Part shown: one piece after another, positions 36,720 through 56,009 of the stretch | How the letters are laid out: every line of letters starts with the position of its first letter | Position numbering within the stretch: the stretch's first letter is position 1 | Source: Polyangiaceae bacterium | Lineage (GTDB): Bacteria; Myxococcota_A; Polyangia; Polyangiales; Polyangiaceae | DNA: 64,000 nt | NCBI GenBank assembly: GCA_052147435.1 | Contig: JBKQKP010000042.1 | Location: forward strand, 1 to 64,000 | Direction of reading: 5' to 3' | Translations under genes and position numbers: made by a program | The notes under the pieces: generated by a model | Seen by the model: the letters and a program-made list of their open reading frames with translations, nothing else | Told to the model about the DNA's origin: nothing | Database searches by the model: none

Positions 36720-38096
36720 TCATGCCGGGCGGAACGACAGCTTGGCCAGCGCGCGCTCGCACTCCTCGGCGACGAGCTGCACTCTGAGCTTGCGCGCCAT
36801 ATCCTGAACGCGGACGAGCTCTCGTGGTGCGCGGGTGTCACGGCCGTCGGCCAGAAGTCGTCCAAGCCAATAGCGAGAGTGCAGCGCGAACCAGGCGTCG
36901 CCCTTCGCCTCGAGGTCCCCGACCAGCTCCTCGATGCGGGCGGGCTTCGCGTCGAGGTAAGCCAGGAGCACCTCGTTGTGCATGCGGAGGTGCTCGGCAC
37001 CGATTTCGCCGGCGATGGCGCTCGACTCCGCGAGCGCGGAGCGCGCGCGATCGACCTCGCCCCGGCGCACGCACGCGTCGCCGACGTTGTGCAAGTTCGT
37101 GCACTCCTCGTCGCGAAGACCAGCCCGACGCGCGAATGCGACCGCCGCCTCGGTGATCTCGGCGGCTTCTGCGCAGTCACCCGCGAAGAGAAAGCTCATG
37201 GCGCGCGACTTGGCGCAGCGGGCGAGCAGTACCGGGTCTCCCCCGAGCTCGGCGGCGAGCGCCTCCGTGCGCACGATCAGGGCGAGAGTGCGCGCGTTCG
37301 CCTCGCGGCCACCGACGATCACCGTCGCGCGGGCGAGGAGGGTGAGGAGCTCGAAGCGCTCATGCCTGTCCGCGGGGAGGATCGTCGTCGTGAGGATGTC
37401 GATGACGGAGCCGCGTTCGTCGGCCAGCTGGGCGACCTTCGCCGACTCGTAGGACACGTCGCGCAGGCGCACCTTGTCGTCGGCGATGGCGGCGGCCTCG
37501 GCGAGTAGGTCCTTGGCGGCGACGAAGTCCGAGAGGGACGCGAGCGCGCGGGCTCCGCACGCGAGCCCCGCCGCGACGATGTTCGCCTTCTTGGACGCTC
37601 GCAGCGCTTCGAGGCAACGGTCGAGCGCGACATGCGCGAGGGTACGGTCGGAGCTCGAGCCGGCTACGCCCGTGGGGAGCGTCACGTGGCGCTCGAAGCC
37701 GGCCAGCACGTCGCGCTCGACGATCCGACGCGAAGACTGAAGCGCGTCGGCGAGCAGTCGAATGCGTGCTGCGAGGGTCTCCGGCTTCTCACGATGCGCA
37801 TCGCCGACGAGAAGGGCACGCACCGCACATCGAGCGGCTGCGTCCGCGCCCGCGCGCCGCAGTTGCGCCCTGCCTGCGTGCATGAAGGCCGCCGCGGCCC
37901 GATTCGGCTCGCCGGCTTCGAGCCAGTGAATCGCCACGCCTTCGAGGTCCTCGTCGTCCCGCTCGTCCCGCTCGTCACCCTCGCCGCGCTGCGAGGCCAG
38001 GCGATGGTCAGGCGCAGCGGGCGCGCGATCGGCCCGGCTCGGGGTGAGGCCTGCCGTCTCGTCCACGATCACCCCCTTGCGAGGAGTCTCGCGCAC
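36720..38096 (-). CDS. Stand-alone TPR/helical-repeat regulatory protein (similar to the C-terminal domains of the adjacent kinases)
   Basis: 458-aa alpha-helical repeat protein (Ala/Leu/Arg/Glu-rich), no kinase domain. Divergent from the kinase at 38224 across a ~125-bp intergenic region. Confidence 0.5.
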   Translation of the reverse strand: MRETPRKGVIVDETAGLTPSRADRAPAAPDHRLASQRGEGDERDERDDEDLEGVAIHWLEAGEPNRAAAAFMHAGRAQLRRAGADAAARCAVRALLVGDAHREKPETLAARIRLLADALQSSRRIVERDVLAGFERHVTLPTGVAGSSSDRTLAHVALDRCLEALRASKKANIVAAGLACGARALASLSDFVAAKDLLAEAAAIADDKVRLRDVSYESAKVAQLADERGSVIDILTTTILPADRHERFELLTLLARATVIVGGREANARTLALIVRTEALAAELGGDPVLLARCAKSRAMSFLFAGDCAEAAEITEAAVAFARRAGLRDEECTNLHNVGDACVRRGEVDRARSALAESSAIAGEIGAEHLRMHNEVLLAYLDAKPARIEELVGDLEAKGDAWFALHSRYWLGRLLADGRDTRAPRELVRVQDMARKLRVQLVAEECERALAKLSFRPA

Positions 38097-38223
38097 AATC
38101 GAGCGTGGAGCAATCTCGTCCGAGCGGTCAGGGCACCGCGTTCACGTCGAGCCCGGCGTGCTCCCTTTCCGCCGGCGCCGACGGTGCGCGCGCGGCTCGT
38201 CGCCTCGCACCGCGGGCTGTACG

Positions 38224-41043
38224 ATGTACGAAGGCACGATGGCCGAGCTCCTCTCCGCGGCAGCGACCGTCAGTCTGACGGAAGCGATGGACCAAGCGCC
38301 CGTCGCGGTCATCGCGACGGGGACGACGATCGGGCGGTACGTCGTCGTGGGGCACCTCGGCTCCGGCGGGATGGGGAGCGTCTACGCGGCCTACGACACG
38401 CAACTCGAGCGGCGCGTCGCGATCAAGGTGCTCCGCCCGGACGCGCGCGGCACCGACGGGCGCGCGCGCCTCCTGCGCGAGGCGCAGGCGATGGCGCGCC
38501 TCGCGCACCCCAACGTCCTCGCGGTGCACGACGTGGGGACCTACGGGGACGACGTCTTCATCGCGCTGGAGTACATCGAGGGGCGCACGCTCAAGGCGTG
38601 GATGCAGGAAAGCCACGGGTGGCGCGAAGCGCTCGCGGTGCTCAAGGCGGCGGGGAGGGGGCTCGCGGCGGCGCACGCCGCGGGGCTCGTACACCGCGAC
38701 TTCAAACCGGAGAACGTGCTCATCGGCGGGGACGGCCGCGTCGTGGTCGCCGACTTCGGCATCGCGCGGGCGCAAGGCGCGGACGAGACCCCTTCGGAGC
38801 GGACGATCCCCGCGCGCCCGCCGGTCGAGAGCGACGTTACGGCGACGCTGCGCACGGGGCGCACGGGGGACACGGGCGCGCCGGTCTCGTCGCGAACGGG
38901 CCCCTCGGTGCTCGAGACGCCGCTCACCGAGACGGGCGCGCTCATGGGGACGGCGGGGTACATGTCGCCGGAGCGCGCGTTCGAGGCGCGCGACGACGCG
39001 CGGAGCGATCAGTTCAGCTTCGCCGTGACGGCGTACCGCGTCCTTTATGGTCGCCCCCCCTTCGCGTACTCGGACGTCTCCACGTACATGACGTCGCTGC
39101 TGTCGGCGCCGCAGCCCCCTCCGGCGGGGTCGCGCGTTCCGGCGTGGGTCCAGGCGGCGATCGCGCGCGGCCTCGCCCGTGAACCAGACGACCGGTTCGC
39201 GTCGATGGACGATCTGCTCGCGGCGCTCGACCGCGATCCGACGCGGCCGCGCGTCGCCTGGGCGATCGGCGTGGCCGTCGTTCTGGTCGCAGGTGCGGCG
39301 CTCCTGGTCTCGGCGCACGAGCGGAGCGCAATCCACGCCCGCTGCGCCGCGGGGGACGCGCTCATCGCCGAAGCCTGGAACCCGGGCCTCCGAGACGCAG
39401 TCGGCGCCGCCATCCGGGGGACGGGGGTGCCGCACGCCGACGACACCGCCGACCGCACGCAGCGGGTCCTCGACGACTGGTCGAGGACGTGGGCGGCGGC
39501 GTTCCGCGACGCGTCCGAGGCGACCCTCCTGCGCGGCGTCGAGAGCACGACGACGATGACCGCGCGGCTCGCGTGCCTCGAGCGCCAGCGGGAGGCGCTC
39601 GCCGCGCTCTCCGACCGCCTCGCGCACGCCGACAAGGCCGCCGCGCACCGCGCGCTCGCCGCCGCGTACGAGCTGCCACCGCCGAAGGGGTGCTGGGAAC
39701 CGAACGCCGCTCGCTCCGCCGCGCTCCCCGACGCGCCGGGGCCGCGCGCGCGGGTCGTGGCGCTTCAGAAGGAGCTCGCCCAGGCGTCCGCGCTCACGAT
39801 GACCGGGAGCTGCGATGGGGTGATCGCCGCGGCGAACCGGGGGATCGAGGAGGCGCGCGCGATCCCGCACCGCGCCTCGGAGGCCGAGTTCCTGATGCTC
39901 CGCGCCGGGTGCGAGTGGGACTCGGGCGACGTGAGCGCCTCGGTCGTGTCGGAGCAGGCGGCGTTCGTCGCGGCGCTCGCCGCGGGGGACGACTCGCTCG
40001 CCGCCGTGGTGACATCGAAGATCGCATTCGACTACGCGGACCGGGTCGCGAAGGCGAACGAGGCCGAGCAGTGGCTCGCGATCGGCAAGGGAATCGTCGA
40101 GCGCGAAGGGCGCGACGACCGCGCCGAGGCCGAGCTCCTCAACGCCGAGGTCGAGGTCCTCTCGTTCGAGGGGTACGGGGAGCGGACGATCCCCCTCCAC
40201 GAGCGCGACATCGAGCTCCTCACGCGCGTCTACGGCCCCGCGCACCCTACGGTCGCGGCGGCCTACAACAACTACGCGACCGATCTGAACGACGTCGGCC
40301 GCCAGGAGGAGGGGCTCGCGGCGCTCCGGAAGGGGGTCGCGATCAACGAGGCGGTCTATGGCCCGAACGACCCGATGCTCCATATCGACTACAACAACAT
40401 CGGCGTCGCTTACACGCAGCTCGGCCGGTACGACGACGCGCGCGAGGCGCTCGCGCACGCCCTCGTCCTCGTGAAGCCGCTCGGCCCGAAGACCGCGAAC
40501 GCGATCGTCCTATGGGCGTCGATGGCGGTCGTCGACAACCGCGCGGGGCGCCCGGACGCGGCGATGGACGATGTCGAGCAGGCGATGGCGATCGTGCGGG
40601 AGACCGGCGACAACGGTGCGCGCTTCCTCCCGTGCCTCTACGAGCAGCGCGGTCGCGCGCTCCTCGCGCGGCACGACGCGGCGGGTGCCGTCGCCGCGTG
40701 CGCCCAGGGGGTGAAGCTCCAGGAGGAGCAGGGGGTGATCGGACCGGACAAGATCTACACGGACGACGCCATAACGTGCCTCGGCGAATCGGAGCTCGCC
40801 GCGCGGAAGCTCGACGACGCGATCTCCCACCTCGAGCGGAGCGTGGCGCTGACCAAGAGGGACTGGAAGGGGGGGCTGCCGATCGCCGAGATCGACCTCG
40901 CGAAGGCGCTGCGCGCGGCGAACAGGGATATCGAGAGGGCGCGAAGCCTCGCGGAGGAGGGGGTTGCGGGGCTGAAGGGGGTGACGGGGGCGGAGGCGCA
41001 AGAGAAAGAGGGGGAGGCGTGGTTGGCGGAGTGGAAGAGGTGA
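38224..41043 (+). CDS. Hanks-type Ser/Thr protein kinase with a ~600-aa C-terminal TPR domain
   Basis: LGSGGMGSVYAAYD, AIKVL, HRDFKPENVLI, DFGIAR, SPER. TM helix near aa 345. TPR repeats (YNNYATDLNDVGRQEEGLAALRKGVAI..., YNNIGVAYTQLGRYDDAREAL). Confidence 0.9.
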   Translation: MYEGTMAELLSAAATVSLTEAMDQAPVAVIATGTTIGRYVVVGHLGSGGMGSVYAAYDTQLERRVAIKVLRPDARGTDGRARLLREAQAMARLAHPNVLAVHDVGTYGDDVFIALEYIEGRTLKAWMQESHGWREALAVLKAAGRGLAAAHAAGLVHRDFKPENVLIGGDGRVVVADFGIARAQGADETPSERTIPARPPVESDVTATLRTGRTGDTGAPVSSRTGPSVLETPLTETGALMGTAGYMSPERAFEARDDARSDQFSFAVTAYRVLYGRPPFAYSDVSTYMTSLLSAPQPPPAGSRVPAWVQAAIARGLAREPDDRFASMDDLLAALDRDPTRPRVAWAIGVAVVLVAGAALLVSAHERSAIHARCAAGDALIAEAWNPGLRDAVGAAIRGTGVPHADDTADRTQRVLDDWSRTWAAAFRDASEATLLRGVESTTTMTARLACLERQREALAALSDRLAHADKAAAHRALAAAYELPPPKGCWEPNAARSAALPDAPGPRARVVALQKELAQASALTMTGSCDGVIAAANRGIEEARAIPHRASEAEFLMLRAGCEWDSGDVSASVVSEQAAFVAALAAGDDSLAAVVTSKIAFDYADRVAKANEAEQWLAIGKGIVEREGRDDRAEAELLNAEVEVLSFEGYGERTIPLHERDIELLTRVYGPAHPTVAAAYNNYATDLNDVGRQEEGLAALRKGVAINEAVYGPNDPMLHIDYNNIGVAYTQLGRYDDAREALAHALVLVKPLGPKTANAIVLWASMAVVDNRAGRPDAAMDDVEQAMAIVRETGDNGARFLPCLYEQRGRALLARHDAAGAVAACAQGVKLQEEQGVIGPDKIYTDDAITCLGESELAARKLDDAISHLERSVALTKRDWKGGLPIAEIDLAKALRAANRDIERARSLAEEGVAGLKGVTGAEAQEKEGEAWLAEWKR

Positions 41044-41408: not shown

Positions 41409-41978
41409 TCATCGTCTTTCCGATCCACCCGCGACGTGCTCGCGGACGGCCCCGACAACGTCCGGCACGACGCGCGCGAGCCGCTCGAGCAGCTCGGCGA
41501 AGGTCATCGGTGGCTTCACGAGATCCGCCGCTTGATCGCGGAGCAATCCGACGAACTCGTCGGGGTCCAGGTCAAACAGGTTGCACAGGAACTCGTCCGG
41601 GGACTGCGCCTCGACCCCCTCCGGCAGGCTGGCGAAGTCCCGGAGGTTCGACGTCGCGATGACCTGGGCGCCGGCCTTCACCGCGGCCGCTACGACGTGG
41701 CGGTCCTTCTCGTGATTCTGCATGCCGGCGACGAGTGGCTCGTATCCCTTGACGTCAGCCTCGGGGAACTCGCGCTCCATGATCGCGCGAAGCTTCTGCG
41801 CCCTGTCTTCGCTCATCGTCTCGGTGGAGATCAGATTCCGCGTCATCTCGTCGAGGATCTGCGACGACCACCGTGCCTGATAGAGACCTGCCGCTGCCGC
41901 GCGCAGGAGCGTGTCTCGAAGCGTGAAGGGGAAGAGGACGTTGGCGTCGAGTACGACGACGAAAGGCGCGGGGACCAT
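41409..41978 (-). CDS. PIN-domain ribonuclease (type II toxin)
   Basis: VVLDANVLFP (first acidic residue), ...DRHVVAAAVKAGAQVIATSNLRDF (conserved distal Asp). 189 aa. Confidence 0.7.
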   Translation of the reverse strand: MVPAPFVVVLDANVLFPFTLRDTLLRAAAAGLYQARWSSQILDEMTRNLISTETMSEDRAQKLRAIMEREFPEADVKGYEPLVAGMQNHEKDRHVVAAAVKAGAQVIATSNLRDFASLPEGVEAQSPDEFLCNLFDLDPDEFVGLLRDQAADLVKPPMTFAELLERLARVVPDVVGAVREHVAGGSERR

Positions 41979-41994
41979 GAGTCTGAGCTCGACG

Positions 41995-42495
41995 CTACTC
42001 TTTCACCTCAGCGTCGTAGCCCCCGAACTCCTGCGTCAGCTGCGAGAGCTCGCGAAGCCCGGCACGTCGGTCCTTGTCCCGCTTTTCCTTGAACGCGAGC
42101 ACGTCCTCGACGCGGAGCCGGCGGTGCTTTCCCGTCTTTCGGAACGGGATGCGCCCCTCGTCGAGGAGCCGGACGAGGTATTGTCGCGACACGTTCAACA
42201 GATCGGCAGCTTGCTGCGTCGTGACCTCCTTGCCCACGGGCACGATCGTGATCGAGTCACCGCGTGCCAGAACCTCTGCAACGCGCTCGAGGACGTAGAA
42301 CACGGACGCCGGAATCGGAATCGTCTCCGCCTTCGGACCGACGAGCTGGCACCTCGGCGCTCGTCGCTGCGGCGGGTGCACCATGCCCTCCAGGGCGCGC
42401 GACAAGGCCGCGACCTGCGCCTGCTGCTCGGGCGGTGCCGAGACCGGCGTCATCCGGCGGATGAGATCCTCCATCGAGTGGGACATCGCGGTCAT
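41995..42495 (-). CDS. Helix-turn-helix (excisionase/MerR-like) DNA-binding protein, cognate antitoxin of the PIN protein
   Basis: HTH TTQQAADLLNVSRQYLVRLLDEGRIPFRKTGKHRRL. 17-nt gap to the PIN gene on the same strand. Start at MTAMSHS. Confidence 0.65.
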   Translation of the reverse strand: MTAMSHSMEDLIRRMTPVSAPPEQQAQVAALSRALEGMVHPPQRRAPRCQLVGPKAETIPIPASVFYVLERVAEVLARGDSITIVPVGKEVTTQQAADLLNVSRQYLVRLLDEGRIPFRKTGKHRRLRVEDVLAFKEKRDKDRRAGLRELSQLTQEFGGYDAEVKE

Positions 42496-42973
42496 CGGGA
42501 ACTCCTTAGACCCAAGCGTAACCGTAGACGTCCTAAAAGCAACTGTAAACGACACAGACGCACCTAGACCAGTCCGCCTCCGCTCCGCTACCCGCCGGGC
42601 GAAGGCGCGTTGGACCGCGAGGCACGCACGCGACATCAGTCGGCGCCGGATGTCGCGTCGTGATCACGGCAGCGCGCGAGCCGTCGGAGGTCGCTGCCGT
42701 GGCCAGAGGGGGCGGCGCCGACCAGATCTTTGCGCGGACCGCCGACGTGACGCGCAAGGATGGCCGGCGCGCGCTAGCAACCCGCGGCCCTTCCGCCGTG
42801 CGACCATGGGAACATGCTCGGCTCCTGCTCAGCGCACCCGTCTCCGCCGTCGCATGCCGCGCCGGGGACCCCTGCGTTGAGAACGAGGGCGCGCCGAGCC
42901 GCGTGGCGATGGGCGGTGGGGGCCCCGTGATACGCCGGCCTCGTACAGCGCGCCCCCCGCAGGTAGGCGCGTC

Positions 42974-44281
42974 ATGACCTCCTCTGATCCCAGCCGCCTC
43001 ATCGCCGCGCTGGCCCGCGACCAGATCAACCTCGATCTGAAGACCGTCGACCTCTGCTTCCTCGCCGGGCTCTACCTCCGGGCCGATCGGGCGGCGCTGA
43101 CCTCATTCGAGGAGGACGTGCTCGTCGACATGTTCGAGCAGGTCTGCGACGTGGTCGACCCGGGCGCCGAAAACCCGCGCAAGCGTGCGACGCACGCGAT
43201 CCAGCGCCTACGCGAGCAGCGAATGCTCGCACGAGTCGATGGAGCGGGGATCGTTCGTGCCGGCGAGTACGCGCTGACGCGGCTCGCGGCGGCCGTCGTC
43301 GAGTACTTCCTCGCCGACGAGGCGCTCACGCGCGAGAGCCTCACCCTGCTGACCGGCACCCTGCGCGCGCAGCTCGCCGAGGTCCTCGCCGCCGCCAAGC
43401 GGGCCGGCACCGACGAGGCGTGGAGGCAGGATGTCGTCGGGCCTCTGCGCGTGACTGTGGGCGATCTCGTTCAGGGCATAGAGCGTCGTCAGCGGGGACT
43501 CGATTCGCAGCAGGAAGAGGTCCAGGCCGAGATCGCCACGCTCCTCCAGGCCGACTGGTTCGGAGCGGTCGAGCGGTGCCAATCGCTTCTCGACACGACA
43601 ACCAACACGCTCCGCGAGCTGAACGAGGTGCTGCTGCGCGATACGCACCACATCGTCGCGCTGCTCCAGGAGATCCAGAGCAACGCGAGCGCCGCGGGGA
43701 ACACCGAAGCTGAGGAGACCGTCCAGCGCGTCATCGAACACGTGGACCGCATCGCGGCGTGGGGCGCCGCGCGGCAGCGTGCGTGGTCGGACTACTACCA
43801 GTACGTTCATCGCTACCTCCGCGACGTCGTGCGCCTCGATCCCGACCGCGCCCTCAGCCAACGCCTCCGCGACCAGCTCGCAGGCTGGACGGGACGTCCC
43901 TTCTTCACGCTCGTGGCCCACGCCCCGTCCATCCGGCTGCTGCGCCCGCTGGAGGCCCGCGTTGAACGCCCTGCCGTAGCAAGGCCGCGTGCCGACCGGG
44001 AGATGGCGCCGAGCCTCGTGACTGCGGAAGATGCGCTCGCCCAACTCGAGGCGCTGGTGCGCGCCGCCCTCGCCGAAGGTGCCGTCGGGCTCGTCGACGT
44101 GACGGCTCGGGTGCTCCCCGCGTTGCCGCCCGAGACCTACTACGCCGCCGCTGGGCGGATCGCAGATGCACTGGCACGGATCGCCCGAGTGCGGTCCGAA
44201 CATGAGCGACCCTGGCGAGCCGTCATCGAACGGCTCGAGATTGAGGACTGGTCGATCCCGCCCGAGCGAGGTGGGGGATGA
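42974..44281 (+). CDS. jetA: Wadjet JetA (MksF-like kleisin subunit)
   Basis: First gene of a 4-gene operon with JetB/JetC/JetD in canonical order and with 4-nt start/stop overlaps. 435 aa, helical. Assignment rests on position and size; I cannot recall diagnostic JetA motifs to verify it residue by residue. Confidence 0.6.
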   Translation: MTSSDPSRLIAALARDQINLDLKTVDLCFLAGLYLRADRAALTSFEEDVLVDMFEQVCDVVDPGAENPRKRATHAIQRLREQRMLARVDGAGIVRAGEYALTRLAAAVVEYFLADEALTRESLTLLTGTLRAQLAEVLAAAKRAGTDEAWRQDVVGPLRVTVGDLVQGIERRQRGLDSQQEEVQAEIATLLQADWFGAVERCQSLLDTTTNTLRELNEVLLRDTHHIVALLQEIQSNASAAGNTEAEETVQRVIEHVDRIAAWGAARQRAWSDYYQYVHRYLRDVVRLDPDRALSQRLRDQLAGWTGRPFFTLVAHAPSIRLLRPLEARVERPAVARPRADREMAPSLVTAEDALAQLEALVRAALAEGAVGLVDVTARVLPALPPETYYAAAGRIADALARIARVRSEHERPWRAVIERLEIEDWSIPPERGGG

Positions 44282-44958
44282 CGAGCGCGACCTTTCAGTC
44301 GCTCGAAGAGGTGATCCGCGACGAGCATTTTCCAGACACCGACCTCGCCCTTCGCCGTGGTCGACATATCGGCCGGGATGACGGCACGGCCTACGACTTC
44401 CTCGTCGATGCTGCCGACCACCTCGAGCCCTTCTACCGGCGCTTCGGCTGCGAGCTGGTGCAGCGCAGCGACGGCTACTTCTACCTGCTCCCCTCCGGCG
44501 ACAGGCTCGGCCGGCGGCAGCTTTCCGCTGGCGAGATGTTGGTTGGGCAAACGCTCGCACTGCTGTACCTCGATCCATCGACGCTGCAGCACGGCGGCGT
44601 TGTCGAGCGGGAGGTCCTCCTCCAGCGCCTCGCCGGCCTCATCGGAACGGAGTCGCTGGTGCGCACACTCAACCCGCGGCGCAAGAGATTCGACGAGCGA
44701 ATCGCCGCCGAGACGGTCCGCACGCAGGTGGGCGACGCGCTCCGCAAGCTCTCCGATCTCGGCTTCGTGGATCTGATCGACGAACCGCGGCTGCGCCTCC
44801 GCCCCGCGCTTCTTCGTTTCGCCGAGCCCGTTCGCGGCATCCAGGACCAAGCCAGCGCACTCGAGCGACTCGTCGCGCGCGGCGAAGTGATCCTCGCCGA
44901 AGCGCCCGACGGTGACGATACCGGGCCCGAGCCAGAAGACGAGGAGCCCACGCGATGA
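44278..44958 (+). CDS. jetB: Wadjet JetB (MksE-like subunit)
   Basis: 226 aa, acidic C-terminus. Sits between the kleisin-like and SMC-like genes with overlapping stop/start codons. Confidence 0.6.
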   Translation: MTSATFQSLEEVIRDEHFPDTDLALRRGRHIGRDDGTAYDFLVDAADHLEPFYRRFGCELVQRSDGYFYLLPSGDRLGRRQLSAGEMLVGQTLALLYLDPSTLQHGGVVEREVLLQRLAGLIGTESLVRTLNPRRKRFDERIAAETVRTQVGDALRKLSDLGFVDLIDEPRLRLRPALLRFAEPVRGIQDQASALERLVARGEVILAEAPDGDDTGPEPEDEEPTR

Positions 44959-47900
44959 GCCGCGCGCGCGCCGAGGCCCTCGTCCTCGTGAACTGGAAGG
45001 GCGTGTTCTACGAGCGGTATCTGCTCGATCGGCACGTCACGGCTCTCGAGGGCGCAAACGGAGCGGGCAAGACGACCGTGATGATCGCGGCGTACGTCGT
45101 GCTCTTGCCAGACATGTCGCGTCTGCGTTTCACCAATCTCGGCGAAACGGGAGCGACGGGCGGCGACAAGGGCATCTGGGGGCGTCTCGGCGAGGCCGGT
45201 CGTCCCGCATACGCGGCGCTCGACTTCGCGCTATCCGGCGCGCGCCGGTTGATCGCCGGCGTTCACCTCGAGCGCAAGGGCGAGCCCTCGGTCGAGCCGA
45301 CGCCCTTCATCGTCACCGGACTCGGAGCCGACGTTCGCCTCCAGGACCTCATGCTGGTCGCGCAGGGAGACACAGAGGTCGTCCCGGAGCTCACCGAGCT
45401 GCGCGAGAGCGCTGCTCGGCTCGGCGGACGTCTGCAGGTGTTCACGTCCGCGCGCGACTACTTCGCGGCGCTGTTCGACGAGGGCGTGACTCCGTTGCGG
45501 CTCGGCACCGACGAGGAGCGTAACAAGCTCAACGAGATGCTGCGGACGAGCATGACCGGCGGCATCTCCCGCGCGCTGACGTCGGAGCTGCGTTCCTTTC
45601 TTCTCAAGGAAGAAGGCGGCCTCGCCGACACGCTCCAGCGGATGAAGGCGAACCTCGACGCGTGTCGGCGCACCCGAACCGAGGTGCACGAGTCGCAGCG
45701 TCTCGAGCGGGAGATCGGCGGCGTGTTCGACGCGGGGCAGACGATGTTCGCGGCGGTGTTCCTAGCCACGAGAGAGCGAGCCGACGAGCTGCAGCGGCGT
45801 GTCACCGAGGCGGAAGCCGTGCGCGTTACCGCGAGCGCGGCGCATCTCGAGGCGCAGAAGGCGCTCGAAGGCGTGCGCCGGGATCTCGATTCCGCCGAGG
45901 CTCGACGCGTGGAAGGTGACGCGACGCTCACGGGCGCAAGGGACTGGCTCACGCGCGTCCGGGCCGCGCTTGCGGCGGCCCAGGACGTCGCACGACGCAC
46001 TGAAGAGCTCGAAGCTGCGGAGAAGGTCGAGCGCGCGGCGGCCCGTGAGAGGGCCATCGCGGATGAGGCTCGCGAGGCGCGACGCGCGGAGCGCAAGCGC
46101 GCCCAACAGAATCACAAGAGAGCAGCGGGCGGCCTCGCAGACCTTCAGCGGGGGCTCGAAGAGCTCCATCGTCGCGCCGGGGCCTATCATCAGGTCCTCC
46201 GGCGACGAACCGAAGCCGAGAAGCTTCTCGGCGAAACCCAGCTGCCGAGCACCGCGCTCGATACGAGACTCACGGAGTGCCGCTCGAACCTGGCCGAGGC
46301 GGATCGCGAGCGGCGCGATGGGGCGCAGCGGCTCGCCGATGCCGCCGCTCATCGCGATGAGCACGCCAAGGTGCTGAACGCTCTGCAAACGCTTGGGAAC
46401 AAGGACGTGGATGCGGAGACGGCGCACGCGTCAGCGCTCGACCAGCTCCGTCGGCTACGGGAGCTGCGCGCCGTTGCCGACCGTGCGCCTTCCATCTCGA
46501 AAGAACTCGACGCCGCGCGCAGGCTTGCTGGCCGGCAGGCCAGCGTCCGCGAGCGCGCACAAAAGCTTGGCGTGGCTCTCGGTGAAGGGCCAGCGGGTGA
46601 GCAGCTTCGGGGCCTGCTCGAGGACGCGGAGTCCGACCGGGCTCAGCTCGAAGAGGCGGAACGCACCGCGCGAGCGAGCCTGGCCGACGTAGAACGACTG
46701 CTCAAGGATGCCCACGGGCGCCGCCGTGAGCTGGCAGAGAAGGAGCCCCAGTGGCGCGACCTCGCCGAACGGGCTGGACGTCTCGGGGATGCCGCGTCGC
46801 TCCCGCTCGTGGATCGCGCGGCGCTCGACCGCGCCCGCGCCTTCGTCGGCGAGCAGCTCGACGCGGCGCGAAAGCGAGAGGACGAGCTCACGCGCGCGAG
46901 GGAGCAGCTCCATGCGGAAGCGCGCGAGCTGCTCGCCGCCGGAGGGCCGTTCGACCCCGAGCTTCTGCGGTTGAAGGATCAGCTTGCGGCGGATCTGTTC
47001 GCGGCGAGCTTCGAGGATGTGGGGCTCGACGAAGCGGGTGCGCTCGAGGCGCGTCTCGGACCGCTCGCGCAGGCCCTCATCGTCGACGACCCGGTATCCG
47101 CGGCCGAGGCGATCGCGACCCGTCAGAGTAGCCTGGCGTCGGTTTGGCTCGTGGCGCGTGATCAGAACGTGTCCGCATTGGCGCTCGACACGAGCCAGCG
47201 TCCGGGGTCACGGGACGTGCTTGTCGAGGAGGGCCCCGCGCTGCGCGTGTCACGCATTCCGGATCGGCCTCGCCTCGGACGAACGGCTCGCGAGCAGCGA
47301 GCCGCCGACCTGCGAGCGGAAGCCGCCCTGCGCGAGAAGGAGCTCGAGGAAGAGTGGACGCGCCGGCGTGCGCTCGAGCGCCTCGCGGCTGACGGGGACG
47401 CGCTGCTCGCGGGGCACGTCGTCTGGCTCGCCGGTGATCCCGGTCCCGGGCTTGCCGAGCTCCGGCGGCGCATCGTCGAAGGCGAAGCGCAGGCGGGGAT
47501 CCACGGAGGTGCCGCAACCCGCAACGCCGAGGCAGCTCGCGCGCTGCGTCCACGCATCGACGGACTCCGGGGGCTCCTTGGCGATGCTCTCTTGCTCGAC
47601 CCACCGGACCATGCTGCACGAGCCGCGGCGCTGGACGACGAGCAACGGGCGTCCATCGCGGCGCAGAGCGAGATCGCGCGGAGCGGAGGGGCCGCTCGCA
47701 TCGTGGAGGACCGGCTCGAGGTGTTGCGCCGATCGCCGCTGTCCGAGGCGGACATTGCCGCCCTGCGACGGCGCGTCGAGGAGCTTCGGGAACAACGCGA
47801 TCGGTTGGAGGGTGCCATCGATGCTATCGACTACATCGCCAAGAACGTCGAGGCTCTCGGTTGGGGAGACGCGTCCGCGAAGCTGCAGCAGAACCAGGCG

Positions 47901-49373
47901 TTGGTCCCGGCACTGGAGGATCAGCTTCTTCAGGCCGAGACCGCCGTCGAGCACGCGGAGCGGGCCGCGGGCGTGGCCGAGGACACTTACGACAAGTCCA
48001 CCTCCACTTGGCAGGACGCCGACGGCCATCGCCGCGCGGCCCTCGAACAGCTGACTGCGGCGGAAGCTCGCTTTCAGCAAACTGGAATCGGCGAGCCCAC
48101 GCCAGAGGCTGTTCACGAGGCGCAGACGGAGGTGGACAAGCTCGAGAGGGAGCTGCGAGCCCTGTCGCAACGACTCGCCGAACTCGCCACGGACTGCGGC
48201 CGCCGAGAAACGGAATGCACGCAGGCGGCGTCCAAGCAGAAGGAAGCGGAAGACAAGGTCGCGAGCGAGCGCCGCGAGGCGGAGCCCGCGATCGAACGTT
48301 GGGCGCGTCTGCGCGCACTCGCCGGACAGCACAAGCTCCTCTCGAGTGTCCTCGCGCCGGGCAAGAGCGACGTGAGCGGGATCCGCGGTCACGTGAACCT
48401 CGTCCAGGAGGCCCACAAGCAGAAGGCGGTTCTCGTCGAGCGACTGCGCTCCGCGCAGGGCGGGCAAGCACTGCTCGCCGGAGTGGAGAAGGGGCCGGAC
48501 ACTTCGGACCTCGCGTTCGCGGACACCTACCTCGAACTGTGGCTCGCGGTTCGAGACTGGCTGAGGCAGCGACTCCCGGCGCAGGTCGCCGAGGTGGACG
48601 ATCCGCGGGAGGCGCTGCTGCGCCTGCGTGACCAGCTCGCGAGCCTCGACGAGCGCCTCACACGGCAGGAAGGCGATCTGCGGGGCGCGAGCGAGGACGT
48701 CGCGCGCGGCATCGATGTGCAGATTCGCAAGGCGCGCGGCCAAGTGAATCGTCTGAACAAGAACCTCGACGGCGTCCGCTTCGGAAGCATCCATGGAATT
48801 CGTGTTCGATTACAACCCGTCGAGAAGATGGAGCAGGTCCTCCGCGCGCTGCGCGAGGGCGCTGCGCAGAGCCTGCTCTTCCAGACGGATCTCCCCATCG
48901 AGGAGGCTCTCGACGAGATCTTCCGTCGCTACGGCGGTGGCCGCACGGGCGGGCAGCGACTGCTCGATTACCGCGAGTACGTGCACCTGCAGGTCGAGAT
49001 ACGGCGTAGCGCGGGAGCGGATTGGGAGATCGCAAACCCGACGCGGCTCTCGACGGGCGAGGCGATCGGCGTCGGCGCCGCGTTGATGATGGTCGTGCTC
49101 ACGGAGTGGGAGCGGGACGCGAATCTGCTTCGGGGCAAGAAGTCGTCTGGATCGCTTCGGTTTCTGTTTCTCGACGAGGCGAACCGGCTCTCGCACGACA
49201 ACCTCGGGGTTCTCTTCGATCTCTGCCAGACGCTCGACCTTCAGCTCCTCATCGCGTCACCGGAGGTCGCGCGCGGGGAGGGGAACACGACGTATCGCCT
49301 CGTGCGCCGGACGAGCGAGGACGGACGTGAAGAGGTCGTTGTGAGCGGGCGGCGCACGAGGGCGGAAGCGTAA
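44955..49373 (+). CDS. jetC: Wadjet JetC (MksB/MukB-like SMC-family ATPase), unusually long at 1472 aa
   Basis: N-terminal Walker A LEGANGAGKTTVM. ~1100 aa of Ala/Arg/Glu-rich coiled-coil. C-terminal signature LSTGEAIGVGAALMMVVL and Walker B RFLFLDEANRLS. Confidence 0.85.
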   Translation: MSRARAEALVLVNWKGVFYERYLLDRHVTALEGANGAGKTTVMIAAYVVLLPDMSRLRFTNLGETGATGGDKGIWGRLGEAGRPAYAALDFALSGARRLIAGVHLERKGEPSVEPTPFIVTGLGADVRLQDLMLVAQGDTEVVPELTELRESAARLGGRLQVFTSARDYFAALFDEGVTPLRLGTDEERNKLNEMLRTSMTGGISRALTSELRSFLLKEEGGLADTLQRMKANLDACRRTRTEVHESQRLEREIGGVFDAGQTMFAAVFLATRERADELQRRVTEAEAVRVTASAAHLEAQKALEGVRRDLDSAEARRVEGDATLTGARDWLTRVRAALAAAQDVARRTEELEAAEKVERAAARERAIADEAREARRAERKRAQQNHKRAAGGLADLQRGLEELHRRAGAYHQVLRRRTEAEKLLGETQLPSTALDTRLTECRSNLAEADRERRDGAQRLADAAAHRDEHAKVLNALQTLGNKDVDAETAHASALDQLRRLRELRAVADRAPSISKELDAARRLAGRQASVRERAQKLGVALGEGPAGEQLRGLLEDAESDRAQLEEAERTARASLADVERLLKDAHGRRRELAEKEPQWRDLAERAGRLGDAASLPLVDRAALDRARAFVGEQLDAARKREDELTRAREQLHAEARELLAAGGPFDPELLRLKDQLAADLFAASFEDVGLDEAGALEARLGPLAQALIVDDPVSAAEAIATRQSSLASVWLVARDQNVSALALDTSQRPGSRDVLVEEGPALRVSRIPDRPRLGRTAREQRAADLRAEAALREKELEEEWTRRRALERLAADGDALLAGHVVWLAGDPGPGLAELRRRIVEGEAQAGIHGGAATRNAEAARALRPRIDGLRGLLGDALLLDPPDHAARAAALDDEQRASIAAQSEIARSGGAARIVEDRLEVLRRSPLSEADIAALRRRVEELREQRDRLEGAIDAIDYIAKNVEALGWGDASAKLQQNQALVPALEDQLLQAETAVEHAERAAGVAEDTYDKSTSTWQDADGHRRAALEQLTAAEARFQQTGIGEPTPEAVHEAQTEVDKLERELRALSQRLAELATDCGRRETECTQAASKQKEAEDKVASERREAEPAIERWARLRALAGQHKLLSSVLAPGKSDVSGIRGHVNLVQEAHKQKAVLVERLRSAQGGQALLAGVEKGPDTSDLAFADTYLELWLAVRDWLRQRLPAQVAEVDDPREALLRLRDQLASLDERLTRQEGDLRGASEDVARGIDVQIRKARGQVNRLNKNLDGVRFGSIHGIRVRLQPVEKMEQVLRALREGAAQSLLFQTDLPIEEALDEIFRRYGGGRTGGQRLLDYREYVHLQVEIRRSAGADWEIANPTRLSTGEAIGVGAALMMVVLTEWERDANLLRGKKSSGSLRFLFLDEANRLSHDNLGVLFDLCQTLDLQLLIASPEVARGEGNTTYRLVRRTSEDGREEVVVSGRRTRAEA

Positions 49374-50362
49374 TGTGGGAAACTGCAGACGAGTACTTGG
49401 CGCTGCTCGAGCTGCTCTCACGCGGCACCCTGAAGCGGCGACGCGTACAGGAGGGAGCATTCGAAGCCCTGTCCGAGCTTCCGTGGACGCGCGCGACCGG
49501 ACGCCGGGATGAGCTGGGCCTCGTGGAAGACCGACGCCACGAACTCGTCGCGCTCCTCGAGCGTGTCTGGCCCGCCTGGAGAGAAGAGCTCGCAGATCTC
49601 ACCGCGCAAGGTCTTCCACCCACCCCCGAGGGCCGGGCGCGCCTGCTCGACACCCGCCGGGCGGCGGGCATCCCTGAGCTCCCGGACCGGATCAATCGGC
49701 GTACGGCGGCGGCGCTCGCCGCGCCTCACTCCAAGGCGACCCTCACGGAGGGGAGACGAGCCGCCCTCGGCGACACGGAGGCAACCCATGACGGCACCGT
49801 GCGCTTGCGCCCTCCGCCCGGAATGGTCGCGCGCACCAACCGGGGTGTCGTCGATCTCTCGGCCGTCGCCGATGTTCTTGGCGAGGTCGCGATACCGGAA
49901 CGCGCCTTCCTCGACGACCTACAGCTCGAGGGCGACCTGCGTGCCGTCCTTCTTGTCGAGAACCTCGGTGCGTGGCGAGACATGCCCGCGCCCGCGGGCT
50001 TTCTGCTCGCGCATGTCCCCGGTTGGGACACGGCGACTGTCGCGCGCCTCCTCGACCACGTCGCGGATGTGCCCGTCGTTCACTTCGGCGACCTAGATCC
50101 GAACGGCGTCCGGATCTACTTGCACTTGCGCGAACGCCGCCCGGGTCTGCGCTGGTTTGTTCCTGCCTTCTGGGGCGAGTTCGTCGAGAGCCACGCCTTG
50201 CGCGCGCCCTGGCCGGCGGACCTCAACCTCAGCGCGGCTCCGGCGCTCGTGCGGGAGCTTGCTGGGCGTGGGCTCTGGCTCGAACAGGAGCGCATCGTGC
50301 TCGACCCCAGGATTTGCGAGGCGCTCGATTTCGCACTGCGCACCAACGGTGCCGACCCATGA
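49373..50362 (+). CDS. jetD: Wadjet JetD (MksG-like Toprim/topoisomerase-VI-A-like nuclease subunit)
   Basis: Toprim-like acidic motifs LLVENLGAW (E) and VVHFGDLDPNG (DxD) in the C-terminal half. TAATG overlap with jetC. 329 aa. Confidence 0.75.
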   Translation: MWETADEYLALLELLSRGTLKRRRVQEGAFEALSELPWTRATGRRDELGLVEDRRHELVALLERVWPAWREELADLTAQGLPPTPEGRARLLDTRRAAGIPELPDRINRRTAAALAAPHSKATLTEGRRAALGDTEATHDGTVRLRPPPGMVARTNRGVVDLSAVADVLGEVAIPERAFLDDLQLEGDLRAVLLVENLGAWRDMPAPAGFLLAHVPGWDTATVARLLDHVADVPVVHFGDLDPNGVRIYLHLRERRPGLRWFVPAFWGEFVESHALRAPWPADLNLSAAPALVRELAGRGLWLEQERIVLDPRICEALDFALRTNGADP

Positions 50363-50464
50363 CCAAGCCATCGCCCACGCCGGTGTACTCCGCCGCCGCC
50401 GCCCAGGCCGCCCACTGTTGGCTCAACGACCTCGTGGCGCTCCTGATGTATGCTGCACGTCAGC

Positions 50465-50827
50465 ATGGCCGCCAAGAAGACCCCCTCGAAGAAGCCCGTG
50501 AACAAGTCGAAGTTCGTCCGGTCGCTCCCGAGGACGATGCCCGGAGTGCAGGTTGTCAAGAAGGCGAAGGAGGCCGGGATCAAGATCACGATCGGGTACG
50601 TCTACTCAATCCGAGCCAAGAGCAATGCGACGCGGAGGAAGGGCTCGACCCCTACGGCGAAGCGCGGCCCCGGTCGCCCGCCCGGGGTGGCCATCGTGAA
50701 CGGGAACAGCCCCGCCGCGACGGGCTGGGGAGGATCGAGCGGGGGCCTCGCAGCGGAGATCGAGCGCATCGTCGAGCGCAAGGTCTCGGAGCTGCTCAAG
50801 GGGAGGCTCGGGGCTCTGTTCGGGTAG
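50465..50827 (+). CDS. Small lysine-rich basic protein (histone H1-like / nucleoid-associated-like)
   Basis: MAAKKTPSKKPVNKSKFVRSLPRT...VKKAKEAGIKITIGYVYSIRAK... Very high GC3 despite Lys richness, which argues for real coding. The overlapping long ORF 49972..51468 in another frame is rejected. Confidence 0.6.
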   Translation: MAAKKTPSKKPVNKSKFVRSLPRTMPGVQVVKKAKEAGIKITIGYVYSIRAKSNATRRKGSTPTAKRGPGRPPGVAIVNGNSPAATGWGGSSGGLAAEIERIVERKVSELLKGRLGALFG

Positions 50828-52596: not shown

Positions 52597-53039
52597 CGCG
52601 TCGGTGACCGCCCGCGCTCCTCCATCGACGGCCGTGTCGTCGTCGTTGTTCAGTGGGAGGCCGCAACCCCTCGAAAGGAATCATTGTCGAAAGGCCGCCT
52701 TCAGTGAAAAGTGGCCGTGCGCGCCCTCCCGCGATCAACGCGCTGCGGACGTCCTTGCGAGCCGCGCGAGCCGGGGCGCGATCCGAGGCGGTCGCTCGCC
52801 GCTCGGCCCACCTCATCGGAGCCAACGCGGCCGACGCGCTATGCCATCCGACACCGCTTCGCGTTGAAGCGAAAGGCATCCTTGCCCACGAGACCGCTTC
52901 GCGCAGTTCATGCGCTCGCGCGGGCTCGACGGCGTGGCCCCCTTCGTGCCTGGGATCGGCGGTTGTCGACGACACCGGCGCAGTACTCGGCGTACGCAGC
53001 GCGCCCTACGCCGGGAACCCCATCGAGGGACGCGCAAAG

Positions 53040-55430
53040 ATGACTCCAAGCACATCCAAATCGCAGGAACGCCCCACATCCGGGAGCCCTCCCTGCTGCC
53101 ACGCCGCGGACGGCGCGGCCTCGCTTGGGCACGCTACATCGGACCCCGTCGTCGCTCGCCCAAACGTCCCGGACCCACGGCTAGGTTCTCCCGTCGCGGC
53201 GGATGGCTACACCTGCCCGATGCACCCCGAGGTGCACTCGGACAAGCCAGGCGCGTGCCCGAAGTGTGGGATGGCGCTCGAACGTGTCGTCATGACGGCT
53301 CCGGCGACCAAGACCACGTACGTCTGCCCGATGCACCCGCAGATCGTCCGCGACGCGCCCGGAGCGTGTCCGATCTGCGGCATGGCTCTCAAACCCAAGA
53401 CCACCACGAGCGACGAACCGGCGAATCCCGATCTCGTCGCGATGTCACGCCGCTTCTGGTGGTCCATCGCGCCGACCGTCGTCGTCGTCTTCCTCGGGAT
53501 GTCAGGTCTCGCGGGAAAAGCGGGTCCGTGGATCGAACTCGCGCTTGCCACACCCGTCGTTCTCTGGGGAGGCTTCCCGTTCTTCCAGCGAGGAGTCGCC
53601 TCGATCGCGCACCGCAGCCTGAACATGTTCACGCTCATCGCCCTCGGAACGGGCGCCGCGTACGTCTACAGCGTCGTCGCCACCCTCGCGCCCGGCGCGT
53701 TTCCCCCGTCGTTCCGCGAGGCAAATGGGACGGTCGGCGTCTACTTCGAGGCCGCCGCGACCATCACGGTGCTCGTGCTCCTCGGCCAGGTACTCGAGCT
53801 GCGGGCGCGCAGCCGGACGGGAAGCGCGATCCGCTCCCTGCTCGGGCTCGCGCCGAAGAGCGCCCGTCGGCTTCGTGACGATGGGACCGAGGAAGACGTC
53901 CCCCTCGAACAAGTGAGGGCCGGTGACCGGCTTCGCGTGCGCCCCGGCGAGCGAGTGCCCGTCGACGGGACCGTCCTCGAAGGCTCGAGCACGGTCGACG
54001 AATCGATGATCAGCGGTGAGGCCATGCCGGTCGAGAAGGCCGTCGGAGCTCGTTGCACCGGCGGCACGGTGAACGGGACGGGGGGCTTCGTCATGCGCGC
54101 GGAACGCGTCGGGAGCGAGACGCTCCTCGCCCAGATCGTCAAGCTCGTCGCGGACGCGCAGCGCAGTCAGCCGCCGATCCAGCGCATCGCCGATCGCGTA
54201 GCGGCCTACTTCGTTCCGGCCGTCTTGCTCGCGGCGATCGTGACGTTCGCGGTCTGGGCGCTGGTCGGCCCCGAGCCTCGGCTGGCGCATGCGCTCATCA
54301 ACGCCGTCGCGGTCCTCATCATCGCTTGCCCCTGCGCGCTGGGGCTCGCGACGCCGATGTCGATCATGGTCGGTATCGGCCGCGGCGCGACGATGGGTGT
54401 GCTCTTCAAGGACGCGAGCGCGCTGGAGACGCTCCGGAACGTCGACACGATCGTCGTCGACAAGACGGGAACCCTCACCGAGGGAAAGCCCCGTGTCGTG
54501 GCCATCGTCGCCGCTTCGGGTCGCACGGAAGGCGAGGTTCTCCTCGCGGCGGCGAGCCTCGAGCGCGGGAGCGAGCATCCTCTCGCCGCTGCGTTCCTCG
54601 CGGCGGCGAAGGAGAAAGGGCTGACGCTCGTCGCCGCAGAGGACTTTCGGTCAGTCACTGGGAAGGGGATCACGGGGCGAGTGAACGGCCGTCAGACGGG
54701 CGTAGGCAATCGCGCCCTGGTTGTCGAGCTCGGAGCGGATGAGCAGCCCCTGGCGGCAAGGGCGGAGGAGCTTCGCTCCAAGGGACAGACGGTCGTCTTC
54801 GTCACGATGGGGGGGAAGCTCGCAGGCCTCATCGGGGTCGCCGACCCCATCAAGGCGGGCGCCGCCGAAGCCGTTCGTGCGCTCCGCGCGGAGAAGGTCC
54901 ACGTCGTGATGCTGACGGGCGACAACCGTACGAACGCCGACGTCGTCGCCCGCGCGCTCGGTATCGACGAAGTGGAAGCCGAAGTCCTCCCCCAACAGAA
55001 GGGCGAGGTCGTGCGAAAGCTGAAGGCCAAGGGACGGATCGTCGCGATGGCCGGAGACGGAATTAACGACGCACCGGCGCTGGCCGAAGCGAACGTGGGG
55101 ATCGCGATGGGCACGGGGACGGACGTCGCGATGCAGAGCGCGGGCGTCGTCCTCGTCCGCGGCGACCTCGCTGGCATTGCCCGTGCGCGCGAGCTCAGCC
55201 GAGCCACGATGCGAAACATCCGGCAGAACCTGTTCCTCGCGTTCGTCTACAACGGCGTGGGCATTCCGATCGCGGGCGGGGCGCTCTACCCGGTGCTCGG
55301 CCTGCTTCTCAGCCCGATGATTGCGAGCGCGGCGATGAGCCTCAGCTCGGTGTTCGTGATCGGCAATGCGCTCCGCTTGCGACGCGCGAGCCTAGGCGGC
55401 GCTACGTCCAGCCGGCCGGAGGGCCCATAG
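53040..55430 (+). CDS. copA: Copper-translocating P1B-type ATPase (CopA-like) with two N-terminal CPMHP...CPxCGM metal-binding motifs
   Basis: CPC in TM6, DKTGTLT phosphorylation site, [14 protein letters not shown]-terminus has [22 protein letters not shown] and [22 protein letters not shown]. Confidence 0.9.
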
Positions 55431-55503
55431 CGTGGTACACCGAGGTCTCGTGACGAGGAGACGCGCAAGCTCACCCAGGCGAGTCGCCGCCGCGAGGCGC
55501 GTG

Positions 55504-55902
55504 ATGGGGGCGCTCTGCGTTCTGTTCGCGTGCGTGTTCGCGTCCGGGATCGCTCATGCCGGCGCGCGCTACTTCTATTGCAACGCGATGAGTGAGCTGC
55601 TCGCGGCGCCGTGCTGCCCATCGGCGTCGGACGACGCGCGCGCGAGCGGCGCGACCGAGGCGCCGATAGTGACCACACCCGAGTGCTGTCACGCGGAGGC
55701 GCTGCCGGCGCTCCCGCAAGCGACGTCTGGCGACGCGCCGGCCGTGCATGCGGCTCCGCTCCTCGCGACCGTTCCGTCGCCGAAGCACGACAGCCAGGAG
55801 CGCTTCCTCTCACCCCCCCTTCGCGCGGTGCTCATTGCGTCGTCGGCGCCGCCACTCTTGGCATCGGAACGGCGTGCTCGATTGATGGTCTTCCTCACGT
55901 GA
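55504..55902 (+). CDS. Small secreted Cys-rich protein (possible periplasmic metal-binding accessory)
   Basis: Signal peptide MGALCVLFACVFASGIAHA; CNAM...CCPS...ECCH cysteine pairs. Lies between copA and the outer-membrane factor gene. Confidence 0.4.
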   Translation: MGALCVLFACVFASGIAHAGARYFYCNAMSELLAAPCCPSASDDARASGATEAPIVTTPECCHAEALPALPQATSGDAPAVHAAPLLATVPSPKHDSQERFLSPPLRAVLIASSAPPLLASERRARLMVFLT

Positions 55903-56009
55903 GCGGCTCGCGAGACGGCTGAACGCCGCTTCGCTCGCAGAGCGTTCGCTCCAATGTCGATCGGTGCCCCGCCTTGCCGCGGGAGCGCCATGAGGAAGGA
56001 CCCGTGCCA

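Follow-up and report, generated by a model that had tools for sequence, protein, structure and literature searches.

A MukF-MukE-MukB cassette with a Toprim nuclease gene in an uncultured Polyangiaceae bacterium: a candidate anti-plasmid system of the Wadjet group

Operons in which a kleisin, a KITE protein and a structural maintenance of chromosomes (SMC) ATPase are followed by a Toprim nuclease raise the question of whether they organise the host chromosome, as MukBEF does, or destroy circular DNA, which Wadjet/MksBEFG systems cleave through MksG/JetD (PMC10123090; bioRxiv 10.1101/2022.10.04.510915; PMC10586767). Such an operon occupies positions 42974-50362 of a stretch of 64,000 nucleotides (hereafter, the window) from contig JBKQKP010000042.1 of a Polyangiaceae bacterium (GCA_052147435.1), and a preliminary description had presented it as a complete Wadjet (JetABCD) system with an atypically long JetC and a short JetD. 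The results presented here point to an intact mukF-mukE-mukB-mukG cassette with a motor of the MukBEF type, which would probably act as an anti-plasmid defence by Wadjet-like extrusion and cleavage of circular DNA.

The four proteins of the operon

To begin with, the four open reading frames (ORFs) on the plus strand were confirmed in the ORF listing of the window, with the coordinates and sizes previously given (Table 1). The genes were found to overlap by their start and stop codons at the three junctions (ATGA between ORF1 and ORF2 and between ORF2 and ORF3, and TAATG between ORF3 and ORF4), which indicates translational coupling of the four genes. All five motifs quoted earlier for the ATPase and the Toprim protein were present. 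Moreover, since each of the four proteins gave highly significant family matches, the arrangement is not a chance pattern of ORFs.

The longest protein, ORF3, scored 1100.6 bits against the NCBIfam MukB equivalog NF003422 over residues 1-1471 (cutoff 699), with matches to the Pfam MukB N-terminal domain (1e-82) and to MukB_hinge (5e-38), and it matched the MukB entries 9gm6/7nyw of the PDB over its full length (312 bits). Its alignment with E. coli MukB (1486 aa) was colinear from residue 1 to about 1000, and E1408 of the Walker B motif would be, from the colinear alignment, the counterpart of E. coli E1407. As the MukB match extended over the full length, 1472 aa is an ordinary length for a MukB protein and not the unusual length of a JetC. 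A different reading would take ORF3 for a repair ATPase of the RecN/SbcC/Rad50 type and the cluster for a DNA-repair module, based on a Pfam SbcC_Walker_B match of 32 bits (generic for the C-terminal head of SMC and Rad50 proteins) and on weak Rad50 and SMC coiled-coil matches. This reading, of practically negligible probability, was refuted by the hidden Markov model (HMM) scores, as the NCBIfam Rad50 (NF002572) and SMC models reached 23 and 31 bits against cutoffs of 1087 and 567, respectively, while the MukB model was matched at full length at 1100 bits, a MukB hinge was present, and kleisin and KITE genes lie directly upstream. The grouping of the protein with MukB, as proposed in the preliminary description, was therefore upheld by the NCBIfam scores.

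Regarding the two smaller subunits, ORF1 scored 401.3 bits against NCBIfam MukF (NF003615) over residues 3-428, just under the cutoff of 407, and matched Pfam MukF_M (3.5e-27) and the KicB winged-helix domain (1.5e-10). ORF2 matched Pfam MksE (4e-34) and MukE (3.6e-33), with 114.3 bits against NCBIfam MukE (NF003602), under the cutoff of 250; the Pfam MukF_M, KicB and MukE domains all exceeded their gathering scores. In a phmmer panel, ORF3, ORF1 and ORF2 scored 298, 123 and 99 bits against E. coli MukB, MukF and MukE, respectively, while none of the three matched the Acinetobacter BEFG operon or the Bacillus type II operon (TIGR02677-80), even at E≤10. Similarly, sequence searches of the PDB with ORF1-3 returned Muk entries only (MukF, MukE and MukB chains, respectively) and no Jet entries.

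An ordinary type I, II or III Wadjet (JetABCD), in which JetC is long and JetD short by chance, would account for the four-gene architecture, for the Pfam JetD_C match of the fourth protein and for weak scores to PADLOC models, namely JetC1 against ORF3 (45.9 bits, restricted to the C-terminal head, with JetC3 models at ≤19 bits) and JetD1 and JetD3 against ORF4 (≤26.8 and 14.5 bits). However, ORF1 and ORF2 matched no PADLOC JetA or JetB model of any type (0 families at E≤0.01), DUF4194/JetB gave 26.1 bits with ORF2, under the Pfam cutoff of 32.7, and the phmmer and PDB searches led to Muk and not to Jet proteins. A lack of significant JetA/JetB matches was among the refuting outcomes named in the preliminary description, and as regards the PADLOC models this outcome formally occurred. 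The assignment to types I-III, contradicted by these HMM tests, was rejected as very improbable. By profile comparison, ORF1-3 belong to the MukF, MukE and MukB models instead of JetA, JetB and JetC, so that the kleisin-KITE-SMC-Toprim architecture and the broad Wadjet/Mks group proposed at the outset were retained, while the JetABC label for the first three genes was not.

The fourth protein matched Pfam JetD_C with 36 bits (cutoff 22) over residues 185-258. Its predicted structure was submitted to a fold search, in which it matched MksG (8b7f) and JetD (7til), that is, the topoisomerase VI-A-like Toprim fold. The family comprised 782 clusters at E≤1e-3, with conservation spanning the whole length, and the homologs measured 320-347 aa in all of the best 120 of the 782 clusters; the 329 aa of ORF4, previously regarded as short for a JetD, are thus the norm of the family. 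In the family alignment, residues E196, D240, D242 and EQE304-306 were invariant, which points to a catalytic centre under purifying selection. ORF4 is accordingly modelled as a Toprim nuclease of the MksG/JetD family with conserved acidic metal-binding residues, its activity being predicted.

Relation to MukBEF and to the Wadjet types

The locus was placed by means of a published tree, together with HMM and pairwise scores, through the ortholog CAN95857.1. The table of Wadjet-group operons in Data S1 of Bürmann et al. 2025 (Cell, PMC7617805) contains an 'FEBG' operon of Sorangium cellulosum So ce56 (mksB 8011092-8015513, mksG 8010124-8011092; CAN95859-56), which by its coordinates is locus L049 of this analysis, with identities to the window proteins of 79% (MukF), 74% (MukE), 66% (MukB) and 67% (nuclease). 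In the tree of that study (PMC7617805), So ce56 falls in a clade of eight operons, all of them FEBG, with Bradymonas (sediminis), So0157-2, P. aeruginosa NCMG1179, Massilia, Sulfurifustis, Thiococcus and Plasticicumulans. This clade is sister, with a bootstrap of 100, to a pair formed by Endozoicomonas and E. coli K-12 MukB, both FEB. The clade that branches off next contains the operons of Salmonella Paratyphi B SPB7, Shewanella and Vibrio natriegens; these are again FEBG, and they pair an MksB of roughly 1500 aa with a short MksG. The long-armed FEBG operons have the gene order and the sizes of the window operon (MksB about 1470 aa, MksG about 320-330 aa), which showed no difference in kind from them, apart from an uncultured high-GC organism and another genomic context. 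In the literature, no text naming, describing or testing the long-armed FEBG subtype was found, the published source being the table and the tree. The window locus adds a member to this subtype, which has been catalogued and is uncharacterised; the locus itself belongs neither to the PADLOC Wadjet types I-III nor to canonical MukBEF. The alternative of a divergent Wadjet subtype, considered in the preliminary description, thus holds in the form of a Wadjet-group cassette of the MukBEF lineage.

Compared with canonical MukBEF (E. coli, gammaproteobacteria), the domain architecture, lengths and motif positions of MukF, MukE and MukB were colinear, and the hinge and the long arms were common to both. 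In contrast, pairwise identity to the E. coli K-12 proteins was only 26% for MukB, 28% for MukF and 33% for MukE; given the identity of MukB and the position of the Sorangium ortholog in a sister clade, the window protein was not placed inside the canonical MukB clade. Moreover, canonical MukBEF lacks MksG/JetD (PMC7617805), whereas in the window the Toprim gene overlaps the stop codon of the mukB-like gene, and cmoM (smtA), located upstream in the E. coli operon, is absent from the cassette. Furthermore, canonical MukBEF is vertical within gammaproteobacteria, while the cassette family is patchy and found in multiple phyla, a distribution that argues against a replacement of Smc-ScpAB with co-occurrence of MatP, SeqA and Dam.

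Type I Wadjet/MksBEFG systems (JetABCD of E. coli GF4-3 and P. aeruginosa PA14, and MksBEFG of C. glutamicum) follow the same kleisin-KITE-SMC plus Toprim logic, and their nuclease fold (MksG 8b7f, JetD 7til) is that predicted for the window nuclease. On the other hand, ORF1 and ORF2 had no JetA/JetB model match and the JetC match of ORF3 was weak; the window SMC protein is longer than that of type I by about 350-400 aa, and its nuclease falls about 40-80 aa short of the JetD/MksG chains in solved structures (365-374 modelled residues), with a different and poorly modelled N-terminal domain. For type I, docking through the IFDR motif of JetB has been described. Type II Wadjet (Neobacillus vireti; TIGR02677-TIGR02680) is also a four-gene FEBG operon, with a hinge and a dimer geometry that are reported to resemble MukBEF (bioRxiv 10.1101/2025.03.10.642339), but it differs in a tandem-KITE JetB of about 400 aa, in a JetD of 444 aa (Bacillus example) and in having no detectable sequence similarity to the window proteins. 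Overall, the locus has the operon architecture, the nuclease fold and the accessory distribution of the broad Wadjet/MksBEFG group, while with canonical MukBEF it shares the MukB equivalog and the hinge, but neither the MukF and MukE equivalogs, nor the absence of a nuclease, nor the clade placement.

Distribution of the cassette and proposed function

With the nuclease as seed, a genome scan gave 80 loci, distributed among Myxococcota, Gammaproteobacteria, Betaproteobacteria, Planctomycetota, Acidobacteriota, Gemmatimonadota and others. Myxococcota were represented by seven Sorangium genomes, Haliangium, Nannocystaceae, Kofleriaceae and Archangium, and Gammaproteobacteria by Pseudomonas ulcerans, P. 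lini, Stutzerimonas stutzeri TS44, Thioalkalivibrio, Woeseiaceae and Steroidobacteraceae. The order mukF-mukE-mukB-nuclease was kept in nearly all of the loci with sufficient upstream DNA. The association was also found in a metagenome scan seeded with MukF, which is independent of the nuclease gene and in which loci with enough downstream DNA were counted: the nuclease gene lay downstream in 32 of the 35 informative loci, and two of the other three were truncated, the third being locus L161. No fifth conserved gene was found across the loci compared, and none of the flanking genes of the window recurred at other cassette loci. Locus L161 (8637-15141) carried an intact MukFEB-like operon without the nuclease, with a MukB 47% identical to that of the window and a convergent TPR/peptidase gene following it; in this operon the nuclease has been lost, inside the clade or close to it.

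Between a Haliangium metagenome-assembled genome (MAG) and a gammaproteobacterial MAG, nucleotide homology was limited to the cassette (76.8% over 7.4 kb), the flanks being unrelated. Moreover, short branches join P. aeruginosa NCMG1179 to Sorangium So ce56, its nearest neighbour in the tree of Bürmann et al., and the two observations together indicate horizontal transfer. On the megaplasmid pBPJTT of Burkholderia pyrrocinia LWK2 (L093, NZ_CP091309.1:64452-89441), the cassette was located between IS21 istAB and a cluster resembling a cyclic-oligonucleotide-based antiphage signalling system (CBASS), with a ThiF-family adenylyltransferase, a nucleotidyltransferase, WYL and SAVED. Furthermore, AbiEi/AbiEii, RES, Fic and N6_Mtase genes were present among the flanks of 30 loci. 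The index of the assembly collection lists one nuclease variant, P0093, in 543 blocks, which suggests that its cassette is a widely disseminated mobile element or belongs to a very abundant organism. On the P0093 contigs shown (L088-L091), a tyrosine integrase, HTH_31 and KfrA_N occurred upstream in the four of them, and DUF7673, a Tn3 transposase and BrnT downstream in three.

Decayed copies, truncated or internally deleted, made up about a tenth of the loci (L014, L036, L041, L045, L048, L052, L053 and L067). Some of them had lost their 5' part; in L036 the MukB arms were deleted internally (residues 31-1339), and in L052 and L053 residues 4-23 of MukF were fused to the nuclease from residue 47 onwards. 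At about 1.7 Mb, a remnant was present in both Sorangium So ce315 and So ce513, the latter strain also carrying an intact copy (L046). Accessory or defence genes typically show mobility and decay of this kind.

A homolog of the nuclease was also found beside canonical MukBEF. A search of the plasmid collection with the nuclease gave, as its only other match, a chromosome-sized record of Aeromonas caviae. In this strain (KAM479, NZ_AP026896.1; L092:8827-9852), an intact JetD_C homolog of 341 aa lies 7.2 kb downstream of canonical mukB, with 33% identity to the window nuclease and the motifs VEN.GA, HFGDLD and GLWLEQE in common. Homologs with 48-96% identity were found genus-wide, including A. 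veronii (L096:10001-11002), A. hydrophila (L097:10001-10990) and A. cavernicola (L098:10001-10969). In three of the four species, the gene shared its strand with mukB and lay 5.5-7.4 kb downstream of it, A. cavernicola being the exception, and the interval contained small variable genes, plus an IS605 tnpB in A. caviae. No paper combining Aeromonas and JetD was among the literature matches listed. The Aeromonas nuclease gene may be what is left of an ancestral mukFEB-G operon in a lineage with canonical MukBEF.

The cassette could also be read as a chromosome-organising condensin, that is, MukBEF proper in a main or backup role with the Toprim protein as a maintenance accessory (for instance, resolving entanglements), or as a machine with both roles. 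Consistent with this, the MukB-like protein exceeds the NCBIfam equivalog cutoff and the Prokaryotic Genome Annotation Pipeline (PGAP) calls its relatives 'chromosome partition protein MukB/MukE'; core genes surround some of the loci, synteny of the locus is kept among Sorangium strains, the Aeromonas homolog has been kept at 5.5-7.4 kb from canonical mukB across the genus, and Wadjet motors may act on chromosomes too (bioRxiv 10.1101/2022.10.04.510915). In contrast, the cassette is patchy across phyla, with homology limited to the cassette itself; integrase, transposon or CBASS-like genes flank some copies, and about a tenth of the copies are truncated, including the decayed second copy of So ce513 and the So ce315 remnant. 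Moreover, the P. aeruginosa and Salmonella strains of the published table have such operons on top of known condensins, and the characterised nuclease-bearing relatives are all plasmid-restriction systems. The condensin role thus appears unlikely, and the locus is most likely an accessory, horizontally transferred cassette and not the housekeeping condensin of its host.

As for the anti-plasmid defence favoured here, a mechanism can be proposed because the proteins are homologous to experimentally studied Wadjet/MksBEFG systems. By analogy with these, the complex would consist of a kleisin dimeriser, a KITE dimer and an SMC protein with the arm length and the hinge type of MukB, coupled to a short Toprim nuclease. 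With ATP, the MukFEB-like dimer of motors would load on DNA and extrude loops, a process that would run to completion on a small circular replicon. The motors would then stall against each other, a state that would recruit or activate the Toprim dimer, which would then cut the DNA through its putative metal-binding centre (E196/D240/D242). The chromosome, being much larger, would never be fully extruded and would be spared. The sequence data show the identity and completeness of the four proteins, the intact catalytic motifs and the behaviour of the genes as one unit, whereas assembly with the nuclease, extrusion of loops, a specificity for circular molecules and a phenotype of defence are inferred from the studied systems.

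Several observations weigh against a defence function. Firstly, a profile of 22 ORF4 homologs gave no match at E≤1 among PDB sequences, solved JetD/MksG included, for which reason structure prediction and fold search were used for this protein; in its model, confidence was low for the N-terminal 135 residues, which may take part in docking on MukE or MukB. Furthermore, regarding the genomic context, some relatives have housekeeping genes around them and no mobile-element signature, as in Marichromatium, where the cassette adjoins smpB/tpiA/secG/nuo, and the window itself is not a dense defence island, with metal-efflux genes, peptidases and a kinase around the cassette. Finally, the Aeromonas homolog coexists with a canonical, presumably housekeeping MukBEF, which makes a chromosome-related role of the nuclease possible.

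Genomic context in the window and significance

The coordinates of the cassette features and of the adjoining gene pair are collected in Table 1.

Table 1. Features of the cassette and of the gene pair upstream of it, in window coordinates
Feature	Position	Strand	Details
mukF-like kleisin gene, ORF1	42974..44281	+	435 aa; NCBIfam MukF, Pfam MukF_M and KicB
mukE-like KITE gene, ORF2	44278..44958	+	226 aa, acidic C-terminal tail; Pfam MksE/MukE
mukB-like SMC ATPase gene, ORF3	44955..49373	+	1472 aa; NCBIfam MukB equivalog
Walker A GANGAGKTT, MukB-like residues 33-41	45051..45077	+	motif search in sequence
MukB-type hinge, residues 641-799	46875..47351	+	Pfam PF16330 MukB_hinge, 130.8 bits
ABC signature LSTGEA, MukB-like residues 1365-1370	49047..49064	+	motif search in sequence
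Walker B FLFLDEA, MukB-like residues 1403-1409, catalytic Glu E1408	49161..49181	+	motif search
MksG/JetD-like Toprim nuclease gene, ORF4 ('mukG-like' in this analysis)	49373..50362	+	329 aa
Toprim glutamate motif LLVENL, from residue 193	49949..49966	+	E196 invariant; family alignment
Toprim DxD motif GDLDPNG, from residue 239	50087..50107	+	D240 and D242 invariant; family alignment
LWLEQE, family-specific invariant motif (E304, Q305, E306)	50273..50290	+	alignment; LWLEQE also in the Aeromonas homolog
PIN-domain protein	41409-41978	-	part of the toxin-antitoxin-like pair
HTH_17 / AbiEi_4-like protein	41995-42636	-	PADLOC mad1, 37 bits; precedes the PIN gene

Directly upstream of mukF, the window contains a divergent toxin-antitoxin-like pair (41409-42636, minus strand), which is the neighbouring module mentioned in the preliminary description and is not conserved beside other cassette loci. 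Further upstream, a Ser/Thr kinase of 999 aa with TPR repeats (38044-41043, plus strand) gave strong scores to PADLOC kinase models (C3a189, PD-T4-6), probably reflecting generic kinase-domain similarity in a kinase-rich, Myxococcota-like genome and not evidence of defence. Downstream, a very basic protein of 125 aa (50450-50827, plus strand) is rich in Lys at its N-terminus and contains the stretch KRGPGRPPG, which is similar to an AT-hook; as the protein had no Pfam or PADLOC match, its 'histone-like' label was not confirmed, and it was found in contigs of the same population and was absent from other cassette loci. It is followed by a lipoprotein-like ORF and by a metal-resistance cluster (52653-62643, plus strand) with a heavy-metal P-type ATPase with HMBD domains (ORF 52653-55430), an outer-membrane factor, a CusB/HlyD-type adaptor with a YtkA domain and an AcrB/CusA-type resistance-nodulation-division pump (CusCBA-like).

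The GC content of the window was ~70%, and the GC content at third codon positions was slightly lower in the cassette genes (0.78-0.84) than in the neighbouring genes (0.84-0.93). Short direct or inverted repeats that could mark insertion boundaries around the cassette occurred at chance level only. Scans for tRNA genes and Rfam families over the whole window gave no match, no sigma-70-like promoter was found and terminator-like sites appeared at background frequency only, the promoter and terminator scans being uninformative at 70% GC. Metagenomic contigs from ENA and NCBI matched the window at 99.6-100% identity, the organism being uncultured. In one of these (L086, ENA ERZ25039484 contig_53741, 99.6%), mukB seemed to be missing; this was discarded as an assembly artefact, since four indels relative to the window frameshift the gene and spurious minus-strand ORFs were called.

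With regard to public annotation, PGAP names the genes of the Burkholderia megaplasmid cassette hypothetical protein, MukE, MukB and DUF2220, with Gene Ontology terms of chromosome condensation, probably as part of a systematic mis-annotation of the subtype. Given these 'chromosome partition' names and the blindness of the PADLOC JetA/JetB models, the subtype is probably missing from counts of defence systems and not tallied correctly among housekeeping ones either. That such operons exist will not surprise a specialist; the subtype is nonetheless unstudied, and mis-annotated in public records.

In reviews, it has been speculated that MukBEF arose from a Wadjet-like defence ancestor by nuclease loss (PMC10586767; bioRxiv 10.1101/2022.10.04.510915, 10.1101/2025.03.10.642339). 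On sequence evidence, the FEBG clade of the window is the closest nuclease-bearing relative of MukBEF, and this clade would offer a natural experimental system for the proposed defence origin. The questions raised are whether a motor of MukB length and with a MukB hinge restricts plasmids, with what size limit, and whether it would be a chromosome organiser after removal of the nuclease. Regarding the mechanism, the nuclease, which matches no solved JetD in sequence, would have to dock on a surface of the MukE/MukF/MukB type, and this could reveal general features of the coupling between extrusion and cleavage. It is conceivable, and is advanced only tentatively, that the cassette is the present-day, nuclease-bearing version of the machine from which MukBEF developed, and that the split between defence and housekeeping is less clean than the literature states; the occurrence in Aeromonas of canonical MukBEF together with a nuclease of the same family supports a less clean split. 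If the Aeromonas nuclease still works with MukBEF, a housekeeping MukBEF would be able to restrict circular DNA, and the cassette of the window would be a dual-purpose motor.

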